A stretch of DNA of 64,000 nt from a virus. Each line of letters opens with the position of its first letter. The stretch's first letter is position 1. The stretch spans positions 1 through 64,000 of IMG/VR virus record IMGVR_UViG_3300023242_000004, one strand, 5' to 3'. Below the pieces are notes generated by a model. It did no database searches. It saw nothing but the letters and a program-made list of their open reading frames with translations, and was not told the origin of the DNA. This document shows positions 19,916-31,062 of this stretch, piece after piece. The position numbers were made by a program, and so were the translations under genes.

Positions 19916-20820
19916 TTTTTATATTTTTTTTTTAATTTATTAATAACGTTTTCGTCATACTTTATAATTAACAATTGTATTTTGTTATTTTCACAAAACT
20001 TTAATTTAATATTATCATTAATTAATTGTTGTTTAAATTTTTCACTACCACCAAAAAATTTAAAGCTTTTATAGTGTTGTTCACCATTAAATTCAATACA
20101 CATATTATAATCTGGTAAATAAAAATCAAATGGTAATGGGTATTTATTTATACAATTATTAAATCTATATTGTGGTGTAAAATTAATTTTATTATTTTCT
20201 AAAAAAACCCTTATCTGTTTTTCACCTTTTGATTCTTTACAAATAGGACAACCATTTTTTCGATTACAATGTTTAATAAATGATTGATTAAATACTCCGT
20301 GAAGTGAACAAATTATTTTTACTTTATTTTTATAATTAACATAATTAACTAATGAATAATCATATTTATCACCATGAACTAATTTAGCTTTATTTATAAA
20401 ATCTTGTGTCGACATCTTTTCAGTACCACCACATTTTAAACAACCATTACCTTGTAAATGATTATTTGGTGTTTGTTCAAATACCCCATGTATTGGGCAA
20501 ATTATTTTAATTTTAGTTTTATTATTTACATATTCAACTAATGAATAATCATAAAAATTATTATGTTTAACATTCATCCTATCAACAACTGTTCTTTTGT
20601 GATTATTAATATTTTTTGTATGGTAATTATCACATTTTAAACAACCACTTTTACCATACAAATGTTTATCTGGTGTTTTTTCAAATACCCCATGTATTGG
20701 GCAAATTATTTTAATTTTAGTTTTATTATTTACATATTCAACTAATGAATAATCGTATTTATCACCATAAATTATTTTAGAATCATTAATGAATTCTTCT
20801 TTAGTTTTTTTCTTTCCCAT
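19912..20820 (-). CDS. free-standing putative homing endonuclease (three DUF723-like Zn repeats plus Vsr/PD-(D/E)XK-like domain)
   Basis: YDYSLVEY...IICPIHG.F...H..G.GC..C x3; LPFDFYLPDYNMCIEFNGEQHY. Confidence 0.85.
   Translation of the reverse strand: MGKKKTKEEFINDSKIIYGDKYDYSLVEYVNNKTKIKIICPIHGVFEKTPDKHLYGKSGCLKCDNYHTKNINNHKRTVVDRMNVKHNNFYDYSLVEYVNNKTKIKIICPIHGVFEQTPNNHLQGNGCLKCGGTEKMSTQDFINKAKLVHGDKYDYSLVNYVNYKNKVKIICSLHGVFNQSFIKHCNRKNGCPICKESKGEKQIRVFLENNKINFTPQYRFNNCINKYPLPFDFYLPDYNMCIEFNGEQHYKSFKFFGGSEKFKQQLINDNIKLKFCENNKIQLLIIKYDENVINKLKKKYKK
20476..20754. repeat. 75-nt identical direct repeat (20476-20550 and 20680-20754) inside the endonuclease
   Basis: Read directly from sequence. 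Confidence 0.85.
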
Positions 20821-20863
20821 ATTAATAAATATATAGCAACCACAAAAAATTACTTAAATTATT

Positions 20864-22497: not shown

Positions 22498-25308
22498 CTA
22501 TTTTACGCTAATACTAGACAGATTATCTTTTTTAATAACTGTAATAATATTATTTGACCAATCCTTCACCAAATCATTGTGCGTAATAAAGAAAACAATT
22601 TCATACATATCTTTTATTTTATCAAAGAGATTTTTCAATTTTTCTAAATTTTCTGATGCCACTTTACCTAATACTTCATCAAAAGTAATAAAGTTAGGCA
22701 TAGGTAAAGTAGATAATTTACCTAACACTGCTCTAAGTGCTAAACTAGCCGCTGTTTTCTCTAACCCAGAACCAGATTTTAGTAATTTAGATATACCATC
22801 TTTAACCATTAAAAATTGGACATCGTTCTTATCATTCATAGATATCTCAATATCGAAATCTACAACATCTTCTAACAATCTTTGTGCTTCAGAATTAATA
22901 ATCGGTAAAACAGAACGCAAAACTAATTTACTAATACCTTTCTTACCAACCAACTCGATATAAATCTTGAAAATCTTATCAACTTCTTCTTCTTTTTTTA
23001 TCGTTTCTATTAATTTTGTTTTAGTGATAACACTAGTTTTATTGGTTTGTATATCTGCTTGAACCCTTTGTATGTTTATAATTGTTTGGTCTTTTGAATA
23101 TTCGCAAACCGCTAATTTTGTTTTAACGTCGATAACTTTAATCTCTATTTTTTTATTAAACTCAATAGCATGCAAATTAAGCTGATATTTTTTAAGGTCA
23201 TTTTTCTTTGCGATTACATCATTTCTCAACGAACCCATTTCAACTTCCATTCTATCAACATTTAACTCTAGTTTATTTTTGTTATCAATTAGCAATTTGT
23301 TTTCATTTAAAGTAGTTAATTTAGCAGATAACGAATTTAACGTTTCATCAACACCCAAAACTTCTTTTCTTAAATTTTCTATTTCCAATTCATGTTTAGT
23401 TATGTGTAGTGAGTTATCCACATCATCTAATTTTCTATTACACGATTGACAAACACCACCAGCAATCAAACCAGTCACAACTTTTTCAAGCCTTGTTATC
23501 TCAGCCTCTTTTAACGCTTTATTTGTAGTGTTTACATTAAAATCTTTAGAGAATTCTAAATGTTTATCTTCATCAAAATCAATTTCACCAATTGCGGTTA
23601 TCTTAACTTTTAACCCAGCAACCTTTTCTTTAAATTCAACACCTTTATCAATTAATTTATCAACTTCACTTTCTAATTTTTCTGGGTTAAGTTCTGAAAT
23701 GGTAACGTCGATTTTTTCTTTGCTATCGATTAAATCGTCTTTACTATCAGTAAGTGTTTGGATTTCAGATTTAGTGTTACCCAATTTTTGTTTTAACTCA
23801 ACATCTAATTCTTCACCCAAAATAATTTTATCATTATGGTCATCTATTTCTTCACCTAAAGTAATAACATCATATTCATTAGATTTTTTCTTCCTAGCAA
23901 ATTCATTATACATTTCTCTAGCCGCTTTTTCTTTAAGTTCTAGTATTTCTAAACCAATAAGCCTAGTTAAAATTTTTCCAGATTCAGTTGTAGTCAAACC
24001 AATAAGGTCGTCTAAGTTTTTTTCTGTTGCCAACACTAACATCTCAAAATCTTTTTCACTACCAATAGTTTCTTTAAGCCTTCTAGTTGTTTGAGTAGCG
24101 TCTTCTTCATTTAACGCTTCTTCTTCACCATCTGGAAGTATTCTGTAGTAGTTAACTCTATTTGTAACAGTCCAACCACCATCTTTTTTAGCCGTGCGTC
24201 TCATTTTACGCTCAATGATAGTCTCTTCACCCTCAATTTCAATCATACCTCTTACTACTAGTTCGTTCTTATTACTGTAGGTGTTGAAGATTTGTTCGTT
24301 TGTGTCTGTTTTTGTTGTGTTACCATGTAACAAAAATTTAATAGCGTCAATAGTTAAAGTTGTATTATGAGAAACTATACCATTGGAATAATATTGGTGG
24401 ACTTCATCTACTTGAATATCATATAGAGTATCTTTGAAATCCATCAACTTAATAGATTTAACATTAGATATTCCATTAACTGTTTGAATCCGCTCACCAA
24501 CTTCTACTTCTTTTAAAACGACAAATTCACCATCTTCTTTTTTAAGCCTGTGATAGTCAGCGCCCTCAACATATTTTCCATCTTCAAGCTCACAGCGATA
24601 TACATCCGCATTCTCTTCAGTGATACCACACCAAGTAATATCTTTATACCCGTAAGGTGTATTAACCTTAAAACCTAAATCACCATATTTTTCATATATC
24701 GAATTTAACTCACCGATTGTTATTTCGTCTGGTAAAACCCCTATTTTTTTACCTATTTCTTCCTTATCAAATTGTATATTTATCCGAGTGTCAGACCTAA
24801 CACATTTACCACCTTGATTAGCTGGAATTGAATTTACTATAGTTAAACCTTTTAATTTGCTAAAAGGAACGTAATTACTTTCACCAAAGGATAAGAAATT
24901 ATCTATCATAAGCCATTTAATTGACCAACTTCTATGTGTTGTTTGCGTTAAATCAACATTTAATTCACCGTTTACCTTGTCATCTAAAGCAACAATACGG
25001 TTGAAATCAACATTCTTACCATCTCTAGTAATTAACTCTTTCATAAGCGCTCTTTGATAGTTAACATCCATGATGTTCTCCATACCAGCACCAGTGATTT
25101 CAATGGCATCACCATCGGTATTGAACCTAACTGGTCTATAAACAACCGTTATATTATTTTTTTGAACACCGTACTTGTTAGCTATATAGTTTCTAATCTT
25201 ATTTTTGGCCTCTTTGCTGTAGTTGTGTGGTTGGTCATCCCAATATACTTTAATCTTGGAATACGGTGATATTAATGTGTTATCTAATGTATCTGTTTTA
25301 TTCGCCAT
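22498..25308 (-). CDS. sbcC: SbcC/Rad50 (gp46-like) ATPase with mini-intein
   Basis: IDNFLSFG, Walker A NQGGK|TT, coiled coil with CQSC Zn-hook, signature SGLEK, Walker B FITFDE, ITHN. Confidence 0.92.
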   Translation of the reverse strand: MANKTDTLDNTLISPYSKIKVYWDDQPHNYSKEAKNKIRNYIANKYGVQKNNITVVYRPVRFNTDGDAIEITGAGMENIMDVNYQRALMKELITRDGKNVDFNRIVALDDKVNGELNVDLTQTTHRSWSIKWLMIDNFLSFGESNYVPFSKLKGLTIVNSIPANQGGKCVRSDTRINIQFDKEEIGKKIGVLPDEITIGELNSIYEKYGDLGFKVNTPYGYKDITWCGITEENADVYRCELEDGKYVEGADYHRLKKEDGEFVVLKEVEVGERIQTVNGISNVKSIKLMDFKDTLYDIQVDEVHQYYSNGIVSHNTTLTIDAIKFLLHGNTTKTDTNEQIFNTYSNKNELVVRGMIEIEGEETIIERKMRRTAKKDGGWTVTNRVNYYRILPDGEEEALNEEDATQTTRRLKETIGSEKDFEMLVLATEKNLDDLIGLTTTESGKILTRLIGLEILELKEKAAREMYNEFARKKKSNEYDVITLGEEIDDHNDKIILGEELDVELKQKLGNTKSEIQTLTDSKDDLIDSKEKIDVTISELNPEKLESEVDKLIDKGVEFKEKVAGLKVKITAIGEIDFDEDKHLEFSKDFNVNTTNKALKEAEITRLEKVVTGLIAGGVCQSCNRKLDDVDNSLHITKHELEIENLRKEVLGVDETLNSLSAKLTTLNENKLLIDNKNKLELNVDRMEVEMGSLRNDVIAKKNDLKKYQLNLHAIEFNKKIEIKVIDVKTKLAVCEYSKDQTIINIQRVQADIQTNKTSVITKTKLIETIKKEEEVDKIFKIYIELVGKKGISKLVLRSVLPIINSEAQRLLEDVVDFDIEISMNDKNDVQFLMVKDGISKLLKSGSGLEKTAASLALRAVLGKLSTLPMPNFITFDEVLGKVASENLEKLKNLFDKIKDMYEIVFFITHNDLVKDWSNNIITVIKKDNLSSISVK
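24364..24804 (-). mobile_element. cis mini-intein (147 aa, no endonuclease) in the SbcC Walker A
   Basis: GGK|CVRSDT...GADYHRL...LYDIQVDEVHQYYSNGIVSHN|T. Confidence 0.92.
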
Positions 25309-25699
25309 AAATGTCGGTTTTATTTTTATTTTTTTCTTTTTCTAATTCTTTATTAACTGTTTTTAACTGTTCAGTTAGTTTTGATATTTGTTCTTTTAAT
25401 TTGCTTTGTACACCATTATTAGTTGTTGACTCTTTTTGTAATTTATTAATTTCATCAACCATTTTTTTCGTTTCTAAATCATCAGTAATATAAACCTCTT
25501 TTTCAACTATTACCTCAACTACTTTTTCAACTTCCACTATTTTTTCAACTATTTTTTCAGCAACGGCTGGTGAGGCTCCAAATTTCTCAACGGTAAAACC
25601 TTGCTTAACTAATTTCATAGTAAACTCATCAATGTTTGTCACATTGTTAAGTCTACAGTAATCCCATATTTCATTTTTAATTTGTTGCGGTAGCTCCAT
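25298..25699 (-). CDS. hypothetical protein with VEK repeats and coiled coil
   Basis: ORF, coupled to sbcC. Confidence 0.7.
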   Translation of the reverse strand: MELPQQIKNEIWDYCRLNNVTNIDEFTMKLVKQGFTVEKFGASPAVAEKIVEKIVEVEKVVEVIVEKEVYITDDLETKKMVDEINKLQKESTTNNGVQSKLKEQISKLTEQLKTVNKELEKEKNKNKTDIYGE

Positions 25700-25916
25700 C
25701 TAATTTATTATTTACGTCTTCTTGTGTTTGGTGGAAGAAACAGACTTCTCTACCATGCTCATCCACATATAATGCAATTATTGGTTTATCTAAACGATAA
25801 ACTAAACTGTTCTCATCTTCTGGGTCTAAAAGACCTACTTCACCATTTACAATACTATAACCATCCATAGATTCTGGAATAGCCGCAATAAACTCTTTTA
25901 ATTCCCCTAACGTCAT
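25677..25916 (-). CDS. hypothetical protein
   Basis: Short ORF, coupled. Confidence 0.6.
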   Translation of the reverse strand: MTLGELKEFIAAIPESMDGYSIVNGEVGLLDPEDENSLVYRLDKPIIALYVDEHGREVCFFHQTQEDVNNKLDGATATN

Positions 25917-25932
25917 ATTTTTTGTTTTTGTT

Positions 25933-26151
25933 TTATAAATTTGTTATTTTTTCTGTTCCGTTTTCAATATCCTCAATTGATTTAATTTTAAATTGATAAT
26001 AAGGGAACTTATTTTCAACATCGTGTTCAGTATATGTTTTAGTTGGGATGTCCCACAATAAAAACCCATGTTTTGTTAAGTTTTCACCAAAGTTTTGTTG
26101 TATCAATGATGAACTCATCATTATAGGAATCACTTTTTTCATTTTAATCAT
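25933..26151 (-). CDS. sbcD: SbcD/Mre11 nuclease, C-terminal fragment
   Basis: IPIMMSSSLIQQNFGE...HGFLLWD matches the YxGS...FGE...KG segment that follows motif V in SbcD. Confidence 0.8.
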   Translation of the reverse strand: MIKMKKVIPIMMSSSLIQQNFGENLTKHGFLLWDIPTKTYTEHDVENKFPYYQFKIKSIEDIENGTEKITNL

Positions 26152-27043
26152 ATTTTTTATATTTTTTTATCACATTAGCTAATAAGAATTTAAAATTTTT
26201 CTTTTTTATTTCCATTTCCCAAAATCTTTCTAAATTATAACCTTTTTCTAAGGCTAATTTATTCTTAAATTCATCATTTTCTTTATTTTTAATTTGAATT
26301 TCGGTTAAAATACTTAATTCATTATATTTAATAGGGTTTACATGCCAATAATCACCATCAGCTTCAATTAATAAATTTAACTCTATTAGGTAAAAATCAT
26401 AAGTTTTAAATTTATTACCATAATAAACATCATATTGGGTTTGAAACTTAATTTTATTTTCTATTAAAATATTACTAATTTTAATTTCAATATTTGTACC
26501 TTTAGTTTTCTTTAACCCTTCCCTCATTAACTGAAATGATGTTTTACCATATTTTAATAAACATGTATTATTAGCGATTTCTCTAAATTCTTTAACGCTT
26601 AATATACACTCAGCACCATATTTATCTAAATTAGTTTCATTTTTCTTTAAACAAGATTCCTCATCTGTACCCATCCAAAATCCATTATCATTAAAAAATT
26701 TTTCATGTCCAATTTTAACTTTTTCTTTATGTTCATCATTCCGCCATATTTTTTTCATTCTAATAGAATGATGTTCTTTCCATTCATCACTATGCTTAAT
26801 GTTAAATACTGGGTTACCCTCTTTTAAATAAAGTTCTTTTTGATGAGAATCTTTACATATCCTAGAACAATATTTTTTCCCGTTCTCAAGTTTATTAGGT
26901 AACGTTTCAAATTCATTTTTACAATATAAACAATTTTCTTTAACTCTATTAACTTTTATTTCTTTATAACCAATATGTTGACATTTAATTGAACAATATA
27001 CTTTATTTTTAGTTTCTTTTTGACAGATTTTACATTTATTCAT
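26144..27043 (-). CDS. free-standing putative homing endonuclease (Zn ribbons plus Vsr/DUF559-like domain)
   Basis: CxxC...YCSxxC x2; YDFYL...LLIEADGDYWH...GYNLERFWE. Confidence 0.85.
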   Translation of the reverse strand: MNKCKICQKETKNKVYCSIKCQHIGYKEIKVNRVKENCLYCKNEFETLPNKLENGKKYCSRICKDSHQKELYLKEGNPVFNIKHSDEWKEHHSIRMKKIWRNDEHKEKVKIGHEKFFNDNGFWMGTDEESCLKKNETNLDKYGAECILSVKEFREIANNTCLLKYGKTSFQLMREGLKKTKGTNIEIKISNILIENKIKFQTQYDVYYGNKFKTYDFYLIELNLLIEADGDYWHVNPIKYNELSILTEIQIKNKENDEFKNKLALEKGYNLERFWEMEIKKKNFKFLLANVIKKYKKYD

Positions 27044-27054
27044 TTCTCTAAAAT

Positions 27055-27093
27055 TTTGTTGTATTATTATTTATTAATAAATATAACGACAAA
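27055..27093 (-). promoter_or_regulatory. hairpin containing a TATTTAT box upstream of the endonuclease
   Basis: 16-bp palindrome TATTTATTAATAAATA (27068-27083) with flanking TTTGTTGT/ACGACAAA pairing. Confidence 0.5.
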
Positions 27094-27107
27094 GCTTAAA
27101 AGATAAA

Positions 27108-27797
27108 TCAATTATCAATCTCCCAACCCATTTTTATATAAGTTTCTAAATCTTCTTCATTAATTTCTATATTTTGGATGTGATTAAACCCACTTCTAAT
27201 ATGGATATCACCACACATAACTATATCACACCCATCAAATATATTTATATTATAACCATGGTCAATCTCGTAACCAATATCTGTTTTTAAACCTATTAAT
27301 GGACCATGAAATAAACCAATATATGTTTTATCATCACCAAACTGTAATCTGGCCGATTCAATATCTGGTCTTTTATTTTCTTCAAAAATTGAATACACAC
27401 ACCAAACAACGTCACCATCTAAATAACATTTAGATTCTTTAAAATAGTTTATATCTTGGTCTGGTAAAAATTGAACCATCGGGCTAATACTATCCATTCG
27501 GTCTTTATTGTTCTCCAATAAATCGTGGTTACCAGCAATAATAACAACTGGACCTATTTTTTCTAATTCTCTCAAAAACCAAGTACCTAGCATCAATTGT
27601 TCGTTAGAAATAATAATTTTTTGGTGAACAAGGTCACCAGCGATTACTATTCTAATTTCTTCTTTTTTATACCCTTCTAATAATTCACCTAACTGATTTA
27701 AAAGAGTGTCAAAAGAATCTTTATATTCATCATGTAACCTAAAAGTCCTAATGTGAATATCCGCAAGATGAACACATTTTTTTATTTTATTACCCAT
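27108..27797 (-). CDS. sbcD: SbcD/Mre11 (gp47-like) nuclease, N-terminal fragment
   Basis: HLADIH, AGDL, GNHD, FHG, GDIH motifs I-V; ends soon after motif V. Confidence 0.9.
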   Translation of the reverse strand: MGNKIKKCVHLADIHIRTFRLHDEYKDSFDTLLNQLGELLEGYKKEEIRIVIAGDLVHQKIIISNEQLMLGTWFLRELEKIGPVVIIAGNHDLLENNKDRMDSISPMVQFLPDQDINYFKESKCYLDGDVVWCVYSIFEENKRPDIESARLQFGDDKTYIGLFHGPLIGLKTDIGYEIDHGYNINIFDGCDIVMCGDIHIRSGFNHIQNIEINEEDLETYIKMGWEIDN

Positions 27798-27823
27798 ATA
27801 CTTTTTTTTTTATTTTTAATGTG

Positions 27824-29206
27824 TTAAATAACAAATAATCTATTCTTAGCTCTAGTTATAGCTGTATATAACAATTTATTTCGTTCAATTTGGTTTAAAA
27901 CCCTATTTATATCTACATTAATAACTATAACATTATCAAACGTACTACCTTGTGATTTATGAACGGTTAAAGCGTAGTTATATTTAACATCAGCATATCT
28001 TTCTAAAAATTTATAGTATTTTGTCCAAGCGCTTCTTCTATCCATAACTTTGGCGTTTTCAGCGGCTTTTTTTAAAACATTAACTTGTTTAGAAAAAGCG
28101 GTTTCAGATTTTTCGGCCAATAATTTAATCTTGAGGATATTCCCATCACAATTAATAGTCACTTCATAATATGAAAAATCATAACTTCTAGTTTCTTTTT
28201 TCATAACAAAAGATATGACCTCAAATTCATCGTTATTATTTAATATTACTTGGTTTTTACTGTTGGTGATAGGTTTATTACAAACCATTTTTTCCCCAAC
28301 ACATAATTTACCGCAATTTTCACCATAAATTAATGTTCTGATTTTAGAATTATAATAATTAACAGCACTATTTGTCCAAGCTAATACTTTAACAAAATTA
28401 GCGTTTTCTCTAAAATGTTCAGAATTAAAATACATATCTAATAATGGTTCTTCAGTGTTTATTTTCAAATAAGCAACCCCATTGTTGTTTTCATCCATTA
28501 TAGTTTCTTTTTCAAACTTTTCATTTTGTCTAATAGTTTCAGCCAACTTAATTATTGGGTTTCCATTAGATTGACGAATAATTTCAGTTAGATTGTAATT
28601 GTTATCCAACAAACTACTGAACAAAATTGATTCACCACCATTAACTGGCGGTATTTGAGCTCTATCTCCAATAAACAAAACCATTATTTTATTTATTTCC
28701 GCTTGAGATTTTAAAACCCAGTAAAGTTCATTATCTAACATAGAAACTTCATCAACTAAAACAACACTATATTCATCCAAGTTGCCGCCATTAAATAATT
28801 GCTTGTATTCTTCCTTACCCTCATGTGTTATATTACGTTTAAGACCTAATAATGAATGTAACGTAATAAAATCAACCCTAGCATTATCATCACTAATCAT
28901 CGATAGATTTTTTAACACTCTAACCGCTTTATTTGTAGGTGCAGTTATTGCTATCCTAATCGATTTTTTCGTAAATAACAGTTCTTCAATTATTTTAGAC
29001 ACCAAAAAAGATTTACCAGTACCAGAATAACCCGTCAATAAAGATTGGGAAAACACATTAGTCGAAATTTTAGTTATCTCTTGAAATATTTCTAATTGTT
29101 CTTTAGTTAACGTTTCAATATTAGGTTTTTGTATAATTGTAGTTTTTTTAACCGTCAATCTGTCAACGATTTTTGGTAATTTCAAAAAATTTTCATCTAA
29201 TATCAT
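27824..29206 (-). CDS. Dda/RecD-like SF1 helicase
   Basis: GYSGTGKS, APTNKA, LVDEVSM, GDRAQIPPV, YALTVHKSQGST, YTAITRA. Confidence 0.92.
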   Translation of the reverse strand: MILDENFLKLPKIVDRLTVKKTTIIQKPNIETLTKEQLEIFQEITKISTNVFSQSLLTGYSGTGKSFLVSKIIEELLFTKKSIRIAITAPTNKAVRVLKNLSMISDDNARVDFITLHSLLGLKRNITHEGKEEYKQLFNGGNLDEYSVVLVDEVSMLDNELYWVLKSQAEINKIMVLFIGDRAQIPPVNGGESILFSSLLDNNYNLTEIIRQSNGNPIIKLAETIRQNEKFEKETIMDENNNGVAYLKINTEEPLLDMYFNSEHFRENANFVKVLAWTNSAVNYYNSKIRTLIYGENCGKLCVGEKMVCNKPITNSKNQVILNNNDEFEVISFVMKKETRSYDFSYYEVTINCDGNILKIKLLAEKSETAFSKQVNVLKKAAENAKVMDRRSAWTKYYKFLERYADVKYNYALTVHKSQGSTFDNVIVINVDINRVLNQIERNKLLYTAITRAKNRLFVI

Positions 29207-29207
29207 A

Positions 29208-30995
29208 TTATAAGTTTTTCATTAAATTATAGTGATGCATTTCAATAAGTTTTTTTGCTTCATGTTTAAGATACATAATTTGAATTTTTTCAAAACTTTT
29301 TTTCTCTTTATCCCAATACCCAATACATATTTGTCTACATTTACGCCCAGGAAACTCTAATTCATACATATATGTGTAAACACTTAACTGAAGAGTATAA
29401 ATCGACCATTGACACGATTGTAAATGGTCAAAAGGTTTAAATAATGTTTCATAACCATATTGGTTGAAGAAGTTAAACTCTCTGTTTGTGTTATGTGTTA
29501 CTGAAAATGTATCACCATACAAAAATGTTTTAGTTTCACTTTCAACCTCAATACACCTAGTTGGTACTGACTCAACTAAATTAACTGATACTATGTTTTT
29601 AAAACTTCCATTATCAGTTAATCCATATTCTACACCTATTTGGTTTCGACACAAAAATGGGTTAAATGATTTAGTACTAAATAAAACATCAATAACGTCA
29701 ATAATTTTACCATTTGCTTTTTTCTTATAATAAATGACTGTTGGTTTTACACCTAGACTACTAATCAATTGTGTGAATGCTTTAGATTGCCATTCTCTTG
29801 TGGTAGACATCACAAACCTTTTACGAGTTTTATTATAGTATCCATCACTATCCATGAAACCACGTAAAATAAGTAATCGTTGTTCATACGAGCCATGTAA
29901 ATATATTTCTGGTAAATGTTTATTATTTAACAACCCCAATTCACGTAATTTAGTTTGTAAACCAAAAATTGTCCTAGTACTAGCTTTCCCACAACCACCT
30001 TGACTAACATCCTCACCAACTTCATGACCTCTACGTCTTATCTCAGACCATATCTCTTCATTCATATTATTTATCTTCCCATCAGCTGAATGACCATCAC
30101 CAAGCCAAACACCAAAAAGATACGGGTCAATTGGTAAATTAACAATATCATTATTTAGTGGTTTAGCTATTTTAATTTTAGGAATTTTATGTGACCATCT
30201 TTTACCACTATCATTTAATTCTTTTACATAATGATATAATTCTTCGGTTGTCATTACCTTATCTTTAAAAACCTTATCCCTATAAAAAGAAACTAACCAT
30301 CTATGTTCAAAATCTGAAACTATTTTCTCATTGTTATCAAAATTTATTTCATAACAAGTCTTATTTTTAACTTCTGATGTGTGTAGTATTTTACTTAATT
30401 TACCATTAATATCATAAACATTATCCGCTTTTGATAACGTACCCATAGTTTTCCAACCATTACTTGTGAATATTGGTGTGTCAATAGGTAGACCTTTCCA
30501 ATCCCACACATCAAAGTATTTATCATTAATATCTATGATAAGGTCAGACATACCAGCTAACTCGTATTGTTCAGAAAATAATATACGCTCTGGCCACATT
30601 GCTATACCCTCATCAATTTTTAACCCATTAAAACCATCTATAACACATTGTTCAAACTCACCTTCTTCATCATCTGTTGGAAAATACCATTTATTGGCTA
30701 ATAAATAACGCTCAACAATATCATGAACCTTATTGCCATATACATTAGCTTCATCATTAAGCATTTGCCAAAAATCAAGTATTTGTTGTTGAGTTAAACC
30801 GAGATAACGTTCTTGTTTAACGTTATCTAATTGGTTTACGATAGCCGCTGACACCCCCTCTGAATCAAAGTGCGGTTCAATCGATGAAAGGGTTGTCGTA
30901 ACCGACTTATAAGTCTTACCAGTTACCCTGTGATGGTATTTATGTTCTATTGGCTCTAGAAATACTGGCCCTTCCCATAATTTAGCTTTACTCAT
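29208..30995 (-). CDS. PD-(D/E)XK family exonuclease with intein
   Basis: SVTT, G..VH, PE, AGMSDL, VWDWK|T, YTLQLSVY. Confidence 0.85.
   Translation of the reverse strand: MSKAKLWEGPVFLEPIEHKYHHRVTGKTYKSVTTTLSSIEPHFDSEGVSAAIVNQLDNVKQERYLGLTQQQILDFWQMLNDEANVYGNKVHDIVERYLLANKWYFPTDDEEGEFEQCVIDGFNGLKIDEGIAMWPERILFSEQYELAGMSDLIIDINDKYFDVWDWKGLPIDTPIFTSNGWKTMGTLSKADNVYDINGKLSKILHTSEVKNKTCYEINFDNNEKIVSDFEHRWLVSFYRDKVFKDKVMTTEELYHYVKELNDSGKRWSHKIPKIKIAKPLNNDIVNLPIDPYLFGVWLGDGHSADGKINNMNEEIWSEIRRRGHEVGEDVSQGGCGKASTRTIFGLQTKLRELGLLNNKHLPEIYLHGSYEQRLLILRGFMDSDGYYNKTRKRFVMSTTREWQSKAFTQLISSLGVKPTVIYYKKKANGKIIDVIDVLFSTKSFNPFLCRNQIGVEYGLTDNGSFKNIVSVNLVESVPTRCIEVESETKTFLYGDTFSVTHNTNREFNFFNQYGYETLFKPFDHLQSCQWSIYTLQLSVYTYMYELEFPGRKCRQICIGYWDKEKKSFEKIQIMYLKHEAKKLIEMHHYNLMKNL
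29490..30494 (-). mobile_element. class 3 intein (335 aa) with LAGLIDADG endonuclease
   Basis: Starts GLPIDT; WCT triplet (HRW, TRCIEV, VTHN); PYLFGVWLGDG and LRGFMDSDG; +1 Thr. Confidence 0.9.
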
Positions 30996-31062
30996 ATTTA
31001 CTTTTATTACAAAGATACGAAATTTTATTCTACATTGCAAGTATTTATATTAAAAGAATACC

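Follow-up and report, generated by a model that had tools for sequence, protein, structure and literature searches.

Fracture of a gene by an endonuclease, with no intein to rejoin the product, has been reported for an SbcD-like locus of the Lake Gatun metagenome, which is interrupted by a Vsr-like open reading frame (ORF) (Dassa et al. 2009, PMC2677866). That locus has 25 C-terminal and nine N-terminal residues that other SbcD proteins lack, and there is an overlap between its endonuclease gene and the downstream part (PMC2677866). The tails of opposite charge that NrdA of phage Aeh1 inherited with mobE are indispensable for its activity, and such tails have been predicted elsewhere as well (Crona et al. 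2011, PMC3045599). The Aeh1 tails are dispensable for the association of the fragments and needed for dimerisation of the resulting heterodimer (PMC3045599). The Vsr-like endonuclease family has been described in PMC2677866 and PMC3239194, and its EDxHD motif was defined in the latter. Here, a split SbcD/Mre11 gene is described from a 64,000-nucleotide stretch of viral DNA (positions 1 to 64,000 of IMG/VR record IMGVR_UViG_3300023242_000004; the whole stretch is called the window). The explanation that best covers the observations, and that is considered likely, is that a Vsr-like cassette splits SbcD and that the two fragments re-assemble non-covalently via tails carried by the cassette. Both the arrangement and the idea of tails were published between 2009 and 2011, and the window is a further, mechanistically plausible instance of what is essentially known. 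What is added beyond prior work is the breadth of lineages, the travel of the tails with the cassette (as seen in co-conversion), two versions of the nuclease, a series of decay and healing, and the structural placement of the tails.

The locus resembles Lake Gatun SbcD in the type of host gene, the endonuclease family, the lack of a split intein, and the overlap between the endonuclease and the downstream part. The 25 and nine extra residues there compare with 23 and about 7-9 in the window, a likeness drawn from the description and not letter by letter. In contrast to the many lineages considered below, Lake Gatun SbcD was a single locus in its paper, and its extra residues were given no role there (PMC2677866). 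In Aeh1 nrdA-mobE, as here, a free-standing endonuclease splits an essential enzyme between adjacent β-strands near the active site, the tails, which are short and oppositely charged, derive from the element, the downstream fragment begins within the end of the endonuclease gene, and there is no splicing. In particular, the window gene is contiguous in close relatives and broken once, a free-standing endonuclease gene with a 3' overlap lies between its halves, no intron or intein is found, and the tails travel with the element and are absent from most unbroken homologues, with the caveat of eight unbroken proteins that bear an insert (see below). Aeh1 differs in its HNH endonuclease, in its host enzyme, and in being a single known case; the polarity of charge is also opposite, with a basic C-tail and an acidic N-tail. 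Moreover, the need for the tails was shown by experiment in Aeh1, whereas a role of the SbcD tails is proposed from sequences and models. Fractured genes with split inteins (Dassa et al. 2009) share the gene layout and the endonuclease family, charged antiparallel strands have been proposed to join their halves, and the same phage group holds both arrangements; unlike them, SbcD here has no intein blocks, so its halves cannot be ligated. The EDxHD prototype, I-Bth0305I (Taylor et al. 2011, PMC3239194), likewise combines a C-terminal Vsr-like domain containing E, D, H, and D with a separate N-terminal DNA-binding region. However, I-Bth0305I is intron-encoded in recA, whereas the window endonuclease has zinc-finger-like N-terminal units and gave no match to any chain in PDB sequence searches.

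The identity of the split gene is clear from both of its fragments (Table 1). Residues 8-200 of the N-fragment match Pfam Metallophos (E 2.5e-10) and also the SbcD-like family phrog_100. At the end of the N-fragment, motif V (GDIH, residues 196-199) is followed by seven residues of the hairpin and by an extension of 23 aa; the C-fragment, after a short leader, picks up at motif VI (SSLIQQNFGE), where unbroken homologues continue in the alignment. Phosphoesterase motifs I-V thus stand in order in one fragment and motif VI in the other, as in Mre11/SbcD, and the homologue fold matches solved Mre11 structures. A search of 1.84 billion representative proteins returned 2744 relatives in three forms: stand-alone SbcD proteins of approx. 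270 aa, SbcD-Rad50 fusions of 1040-1100 aa, and short proteins of 220-247 aa that end in a similar tail. The closest IMG/VR relatives are unbroken and 270-272 aa long (75-81% identity overall: L006 at 81%, L007, L009-L012 at 75-78%); in these proteins, motifs V and VI are linked by a 16-residue hairpin and the tail is absent. DNA alignment with the unbroken relatives places the insertion point at the turn of this hairpin, with 30 identical bases directly 3' of the insertion. All genes of the locus lie on the minus strand in the order helicase, N-fragment, 64-nt spacer, endonuclease, C-fragment, two small ORFs, and a Rad50/SbcC-like ORF. The endonuclease and C-fragment genes overlap by 8 nt, so that the ATG of the latter falls within the last codons of the former. 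The unbroken relatives also keep both of the small genes that separate the 72-aa ORF from Rad50, so SbcD in this clade normally ends where the 72-aa ORF does. Among split lineages, the ratio of nonsynonymous to synonymous divergence (dN/dS) is 0.08-0.3 for the N-fragment core and 0.05-0.4 for the C-fragment body; these low values show, on codon comparison, that both fragments are under purifying selection. The three ORFs should be annotated as one split SbcD gene and a mobile endonuclease.

The sequence-only reading that preceded this analysis had described an N-fragment with motifs I-V and an extension, a 64-nt spacer, a 299-aa endonuclease, and an overlapping 72-aa ORF, with neither intein nor intron; the ORF coordinates bear out this layout, and database searches agree on the missing splicing elements. 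Endonuclease genes often ride in introns or inteins, and inteins are present in the same genome, so removal of the interruption by RNA or protein splicing has to be considered, as does the death of the SbcD gene. With Rfam, neither a group I nor a group II intron turned up in 25000-29000 when the threshold was relaxed to E <= 10, and in L001 and L005 the ORFs overlap or abut, which leaves no room for a ribozyme; the tail is, moreover, translated in frame as protein in re-fused, unbroken homologues. Pfam gave no intein match in the N- or the C-fragment, and a tail of 23 aa with leaders of 7-13 aa is too short for one. A dead gene, in turn, is contradicted by the purifying selection on both fragments. 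Taken together, splicing or gene death deserves next to no credence.

The endonuclease is built of two halves. In its N-half, the cysteine columns are invariant across two CxxC...CSxxC units in the alignment; the region matches DUF7487 (E 1e-5), and a weak NUMOD3 match is found in the L045 homologue. The C-half matches Pfam DUF559 (E 0.009) and Vsr (E 0.02), both short of the curated cut-offs. Its alignment keeps the pattern D, E-x-D-G-x-Y-W-H, D, with invariant D48, E59, Y64-W65-H66, and D89, and with D61 in six of seven sequences. The C-terminal half has the catalytic residues of a Vsr-like nuclease. The alignments show a free-standing cassette at the turn of the SbcD/Mre11 motif V-VI β-hairpin, encoding a predicted Vsr-like (EDxHD-type) homing endonuclease. 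Its parts are approx. 23 in-frame tail codons with a stop, a short spacer that holds a promoter-like box, the gene for the endonuclease, and an overlapping start followed by a short basic leader. The spacer box contains an exact 14-mer, TATATTTATTAATA, at 27072-27085, which recurs at 20820-20833 (minus strand), in each case just upstream of a different endonuclease gene; it may be a promoter element shared by mobile genes. A predicted RNA hairpin before the endonuclease start is not significant in comparison with shuffled sequence (z -1.08). Other phages have, at this SbcD site, a TnsA-like PD-(D/E)xK domain attached to the same zinc-finger/NUMOD3-like N-half (L001:4677-5594, L020:5223-6077, L045:5204-6043). 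Two unrelated nuclease domains, TnsA-like and Vsr-like, on one N-half look like a swap of the nuclease domain with target specificity kept. The TnsA-type cassettes of L045 and L097 also hold an extra small ORF of 77 or 99 aa between the endonuclease gene and the C-fragment (L045:6040-6273, L097:2325-2624), and the one in L045 has no Pfam match.

The acidic extension of the N-fragment and the basic leader of the C-fragment are the parts of the cassette that would allow the gene to function. The tail motif E-I-x-E-x-D/E-L-x-x-Y-x-x-x-G-W-x-I recurs at the same break in other lineages, and the same break with the tail is found in at least 12 protein clusters that are 32-62% identical to the window protein. 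Across 19 aligned split N-fragments that are 32-74% identical, the G and W never vary, and the E-I / L / Y pattern persists as well. A search with the C-fragment matched 58 clusters of approx. 74-aa proteins (a few of them miscalled pieces of unbroken genes), and about 45 of these carry a nearly invariant leader, MEKKKIKIKK-x-IP. The net charge of the tail is between -3 and -12 in 20 of 21 cases, the exception being P0043 at +3, and that of the leader is about +3 to +6, with a mean of +4.7. The sequence-only reading was thus right that the tail and leader are oppositely charged; they are also conserved and absent from the nearest unbroken relatives. It had taken them, however, to be new at this break, whereas they are parts of a widespread cassette of tail, endonuclease, and leader. 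Other split genes with the tail motif beside an endonuclease, which it had proposed to look for, are numerous at the SbcD site; distantly related endonucleases are found in other contexts and lack such tails, and there is no sign of the module serving other genes. Within the window, a regular-expression scan of ORF ends found the tail motif in the SbcD N-fragment only. A MAFFT alignment set the tails against the region of motif VI, which was judged an artefact of the alignment and no sign of a duplication. In a high-GC phage (L088/L089:1295-1504), a frame of 69 aa, separate from the N-fragment and the endonuclease gene on either side of it, holds a tail-like sequence ending in ..GHGW..; this may reflect either a frameshift or further fragmentation.

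The same endonuclease family, together with tail and leader, occupies the same SbcD site in more than 20 scattered lineages. The break, the tail motif, and the basic leader are present in L001 (huge phage LR756508), L005, L008/L085, L015, L020, L045/L097, L087, and the high-GC L088, and their recurrence in many independent metagenomic phage contigs argues against a chance pattern. On a tree of 202 N-terminal regions, in which 174 rows have a short linker, the split and insert-bearing states are scattered and require a minimum of 24 changes, and 10-11 remain when only the well-supported branches are counted. Two near-identical genomes, L020 with the cassette and L021 without it, allow its flanks to be compared. 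Away from the site, their DNA is 96-99% identical; over approx. 500 nt upstream of the cassette, identity drops stepwise to 0.64, and downstream it is back to 0.97 within approx. 100 nt. As read from the alignment, this gradient is a co-conversion tract, as expected of homing from a diverged donor, and the pattern supports homing by the endonuclease. Moreover, the nearest endonuclease relatives in IMG/VR are all located at the SbcD site with tail and leader, whereas more distant ones are found elsewhere without them. The tail and leader shared across lineages and the co-conversion gradient together indicate that tail, endonuclease, and leader move as one unit. These comparisons show the cassette, tails included, to be a mobile unit that has entered many SbcD lineages. 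The tail has a lower synonymous divergence (dS) than the core, a figure made unreliable by AT-biased acidic codons and by the count of only 23 codons. A younger, shared cassette would fit this low dS; for the same reasons, it is not relied on here.

Loss of the endonuclease gene can be followed in the relatives. In L015, a 280-nt 3' remnant of the gene lies between tail and leader, and in L005 the gene is gone, leaving the tail, its stop, 4 nt, an ATG, and the leader. These two contigs show that the split can outlive the loss of the endonuclease gene. About eight unbroken proteins carry, between motifs V and VI, an insert of 40-50 aa homologous to tail plus leader (P0124, P0150, P0126, P0110, P0031, P0088, P0119, and, with a more divergent insert, probably P0005). 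A search for loci related to P0124 returned none. The sequence-only reading had reckoned with the possibility that unsplit homologues contain both tail sequences as an ordinary loop. Formally, these proteins do so. Tail and leader might then be the halves of an old, ordinary surface insert of SbcD into whose loop the endonuclease landed, the insert hitch-hiking by co-conversion ever since; homing copies any non-homologous flank along with the endonuclease gene, and the insert is modelled as a folded element. However, the insert-bearing proteins are each nested singly among short-linker relatives (seven changes for eight rows), and no clade of insert-bearing unbroken genes was found in the tree of 202 N-regions. 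The intermediates, namely the remnant and the endonuclease-free split with its 4-nt gap, also point from split to healed. The scattered placement fits healed scars better than an ancestral loop, and an origin of tail and leader from an old insert appears very unlikely.

The insert-bearing proteins also suggest how tail and leader are placed in the fold. An AF2 model of P0124 has a pLDDT of 88, with 73-90 in the insert. After motif V, the model contains a strand at 193-196, a strand at 199-206 that corresponds to E-I-x-E of the tail, and a helix at 207-215 (D-L-x-x-Y), followed by a strand at 219-221, a loop at 222-229 that includes the break site, a strand at 230-237 that corresponds to the leader, a strand at 239-242, and motif VI. 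When the window N-fragment is modelled alone, the tail helix at 214-222 is confident (pLDDT about 90), while residues 201-210 form no strand (pLDDT 63), as is expected if the strands need the C-fragment. Judged by the order of secondary-structure elements alone, tail and leader follow each other as strands in the P0124 model; they would thereby extend the native hairpin between motifs V and VI into a ribbon of complementary charge, with the tail helix as its cap.

These observations suggest the following mechanism. The N- and C-fragments would be translated separately and then re-assembled without covalent joining. The tail strand (E-I-x-E) would pair antiparallel with the leader strand (K-I-K-I-K-K), extending the native hairpin, and the amphipathic tail helix (D-L-x-x-Y-x-x-x-G-W) would cap this extension. 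The added, charge-complementary interface would make the insertion tolerable, as the mobE-derived tails of Aeh1 NrdA do (shown by experiment there). The 40-50-aa insert of some unbroken proteins would be what remains after the endonuclease gene has been lost and the break has healed in frame. The sequence-only reading had proposed that the tails form a small docking module that reunites the halves, and the sequences and models partly support this interpretation, whose direction is right.

Several points weigh against this mechanism. The window leader is the usual leader minus four residues. The dN/dS of the tail is 0.35-2.7 on 23 codons, which marks a fast-evolving segment with few constrained positions. 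As in Aeh1, the role of the SbcD tails could also differ from fragment association, and the few unbroken homologues that hold the insert leave room for an origin as an ordinary loop. Alternatively, the tails might be functionless by-products of the insertion, the tail being read-through to the first stop and the leader a means of supplying a start codon, with the native interface of the fold re-assembling the fragments. A tail dN/dS near 1 in many pairs, the truncation of the window leader relative to the consensus, and the heterodimerisation of Aeh1 fragments without tails all fit such an origin. It is harder to reconcile with an invariant G-W and a preserved E-I / L / Y pattern at 32-74% N-fragment identity, with a leader that hardly varies in about 45 clusters, with tails kept after endonuclease loss (L005, L015) and within re-fused proteins, or with a confidently predicted tail helix, and it is regarded as rather unlikely.

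A broader proposal may tentatively be made and is held with less than even confidence: tail and leader could act as a portable, two-piece β-zipper, an 'antidote' with which the element could interrupt an essential nuclease at the hairpin of its active site in any related phage without cost, and decay of the endonuclease with in-frame healing could turn this antidote into a permanent insert. Were this true, selfish elements could add structure to enzymes along the path from antidote to insert. With SbcD, there is a second enzyme family with an endonuclease-fractured gene and element-borne, oppositely charged tails, represented by dozens of natural variants. The natural series at hand, which runs from cassette-free through cassette, remnant, and endonuclease-free split to healed genes, makes two questions testable, namely whether tails of this kind serve generally as an antidote when genes are fractured and whether scars, once healed, turn into inserts of the protein.

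Table 1. Positions in the window of the split SbcD/Mre11 gene, the cassette, and the adjoining genes
Feature	Position	Strand	Length, evidence, or remark
SbcD/Mre11 N-fragment ORF	27797..27108	-	229 aa
SbcD/Mre11 N-fragment core, residues 1-199, phosphoesterase motifs I-V, ending in GDIH	27201..27797	-	Pfam Metallophos, phrog_100
First strand of native motif V-VI hairpin (IRSGFNH); host-derived, diverged beside the cassette	27180..27200	-	DNA and protein alignment with unbroken L006 and L007
Acidic C-terminal tail, cassette-borne, with stop codon	27108..27179	-	23 aa, net charge -6; not in closest unbroken relatives
Spacer before endonuclease gene, with promoter-like box 27072-27085	27044..27107	-	64 nt; nearly identical in L008
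Endonuclease ORF	27043..26144	-	299 aa
Endonuclease N-half: two CxxC...CSxxC zinc-finger-like units and NUMOD3/DUF7487-like region; presumed DNA-binding	26540..27043	-	Alignment, Pfam
Endonuclease C-half: Vsr-like (EDxHD-type) nuclease domain, with stop codon	26144..26539	-	Alignment, sub-threshold Pfam
C-fragment ORF	26151..25933	-	72 aa
Basic leader of C-fragment (MIKMKKV), cassette-borne; start overlaps endonuclease stop	26131..26151	-	Shortened; MEKKKIKIKK is usual
SbcD C-fragment body: second hairpin strand, motif VI, next β domain, stop codon	25933..26130	-	Aligns with unbroken homologues
Dda/Pif1-like helicase	29206-27824	-	Before N-fragment in gene order
Rad50/SbcC-like partner gene	22498..25308	-	936 aa; context, outside the cassette

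The neighbouring Rad50-like gene bears an intein of its own, a contiguous mini-intein of 147 aa in the P-loop (24364-24804, minus strand). In relatives, this intein is split after an N-part of only approx. 28 aa, with an intervening ORF in L012 and L015 and without one in L017, and it is absent from L006, L007, and L010. In fused SbcD-Rad50 proteins, the Mre11 part at the C-terminal side is the homologue of the N-terminal extension of the Rad50-like protein (24928-25308). In this clade, Rad50 carries the C-terminal portion of Mre11 at its N-terminus, a gene of its own (270 aa) encodes the nuclease portion, and two small conserved genes lie between them (25298-25916, minus strand); in more distant relatives, everything is contained in one SbcD-Rad50 protein of 1050-1100 aa. 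Upstream of the helicase, a gene for a 610-aa protein (29208-31040, minus strand) has a weak LAGLIDADG_3 match at residues 386-446 and, judging by this match, looks like another intein-bearing gene.

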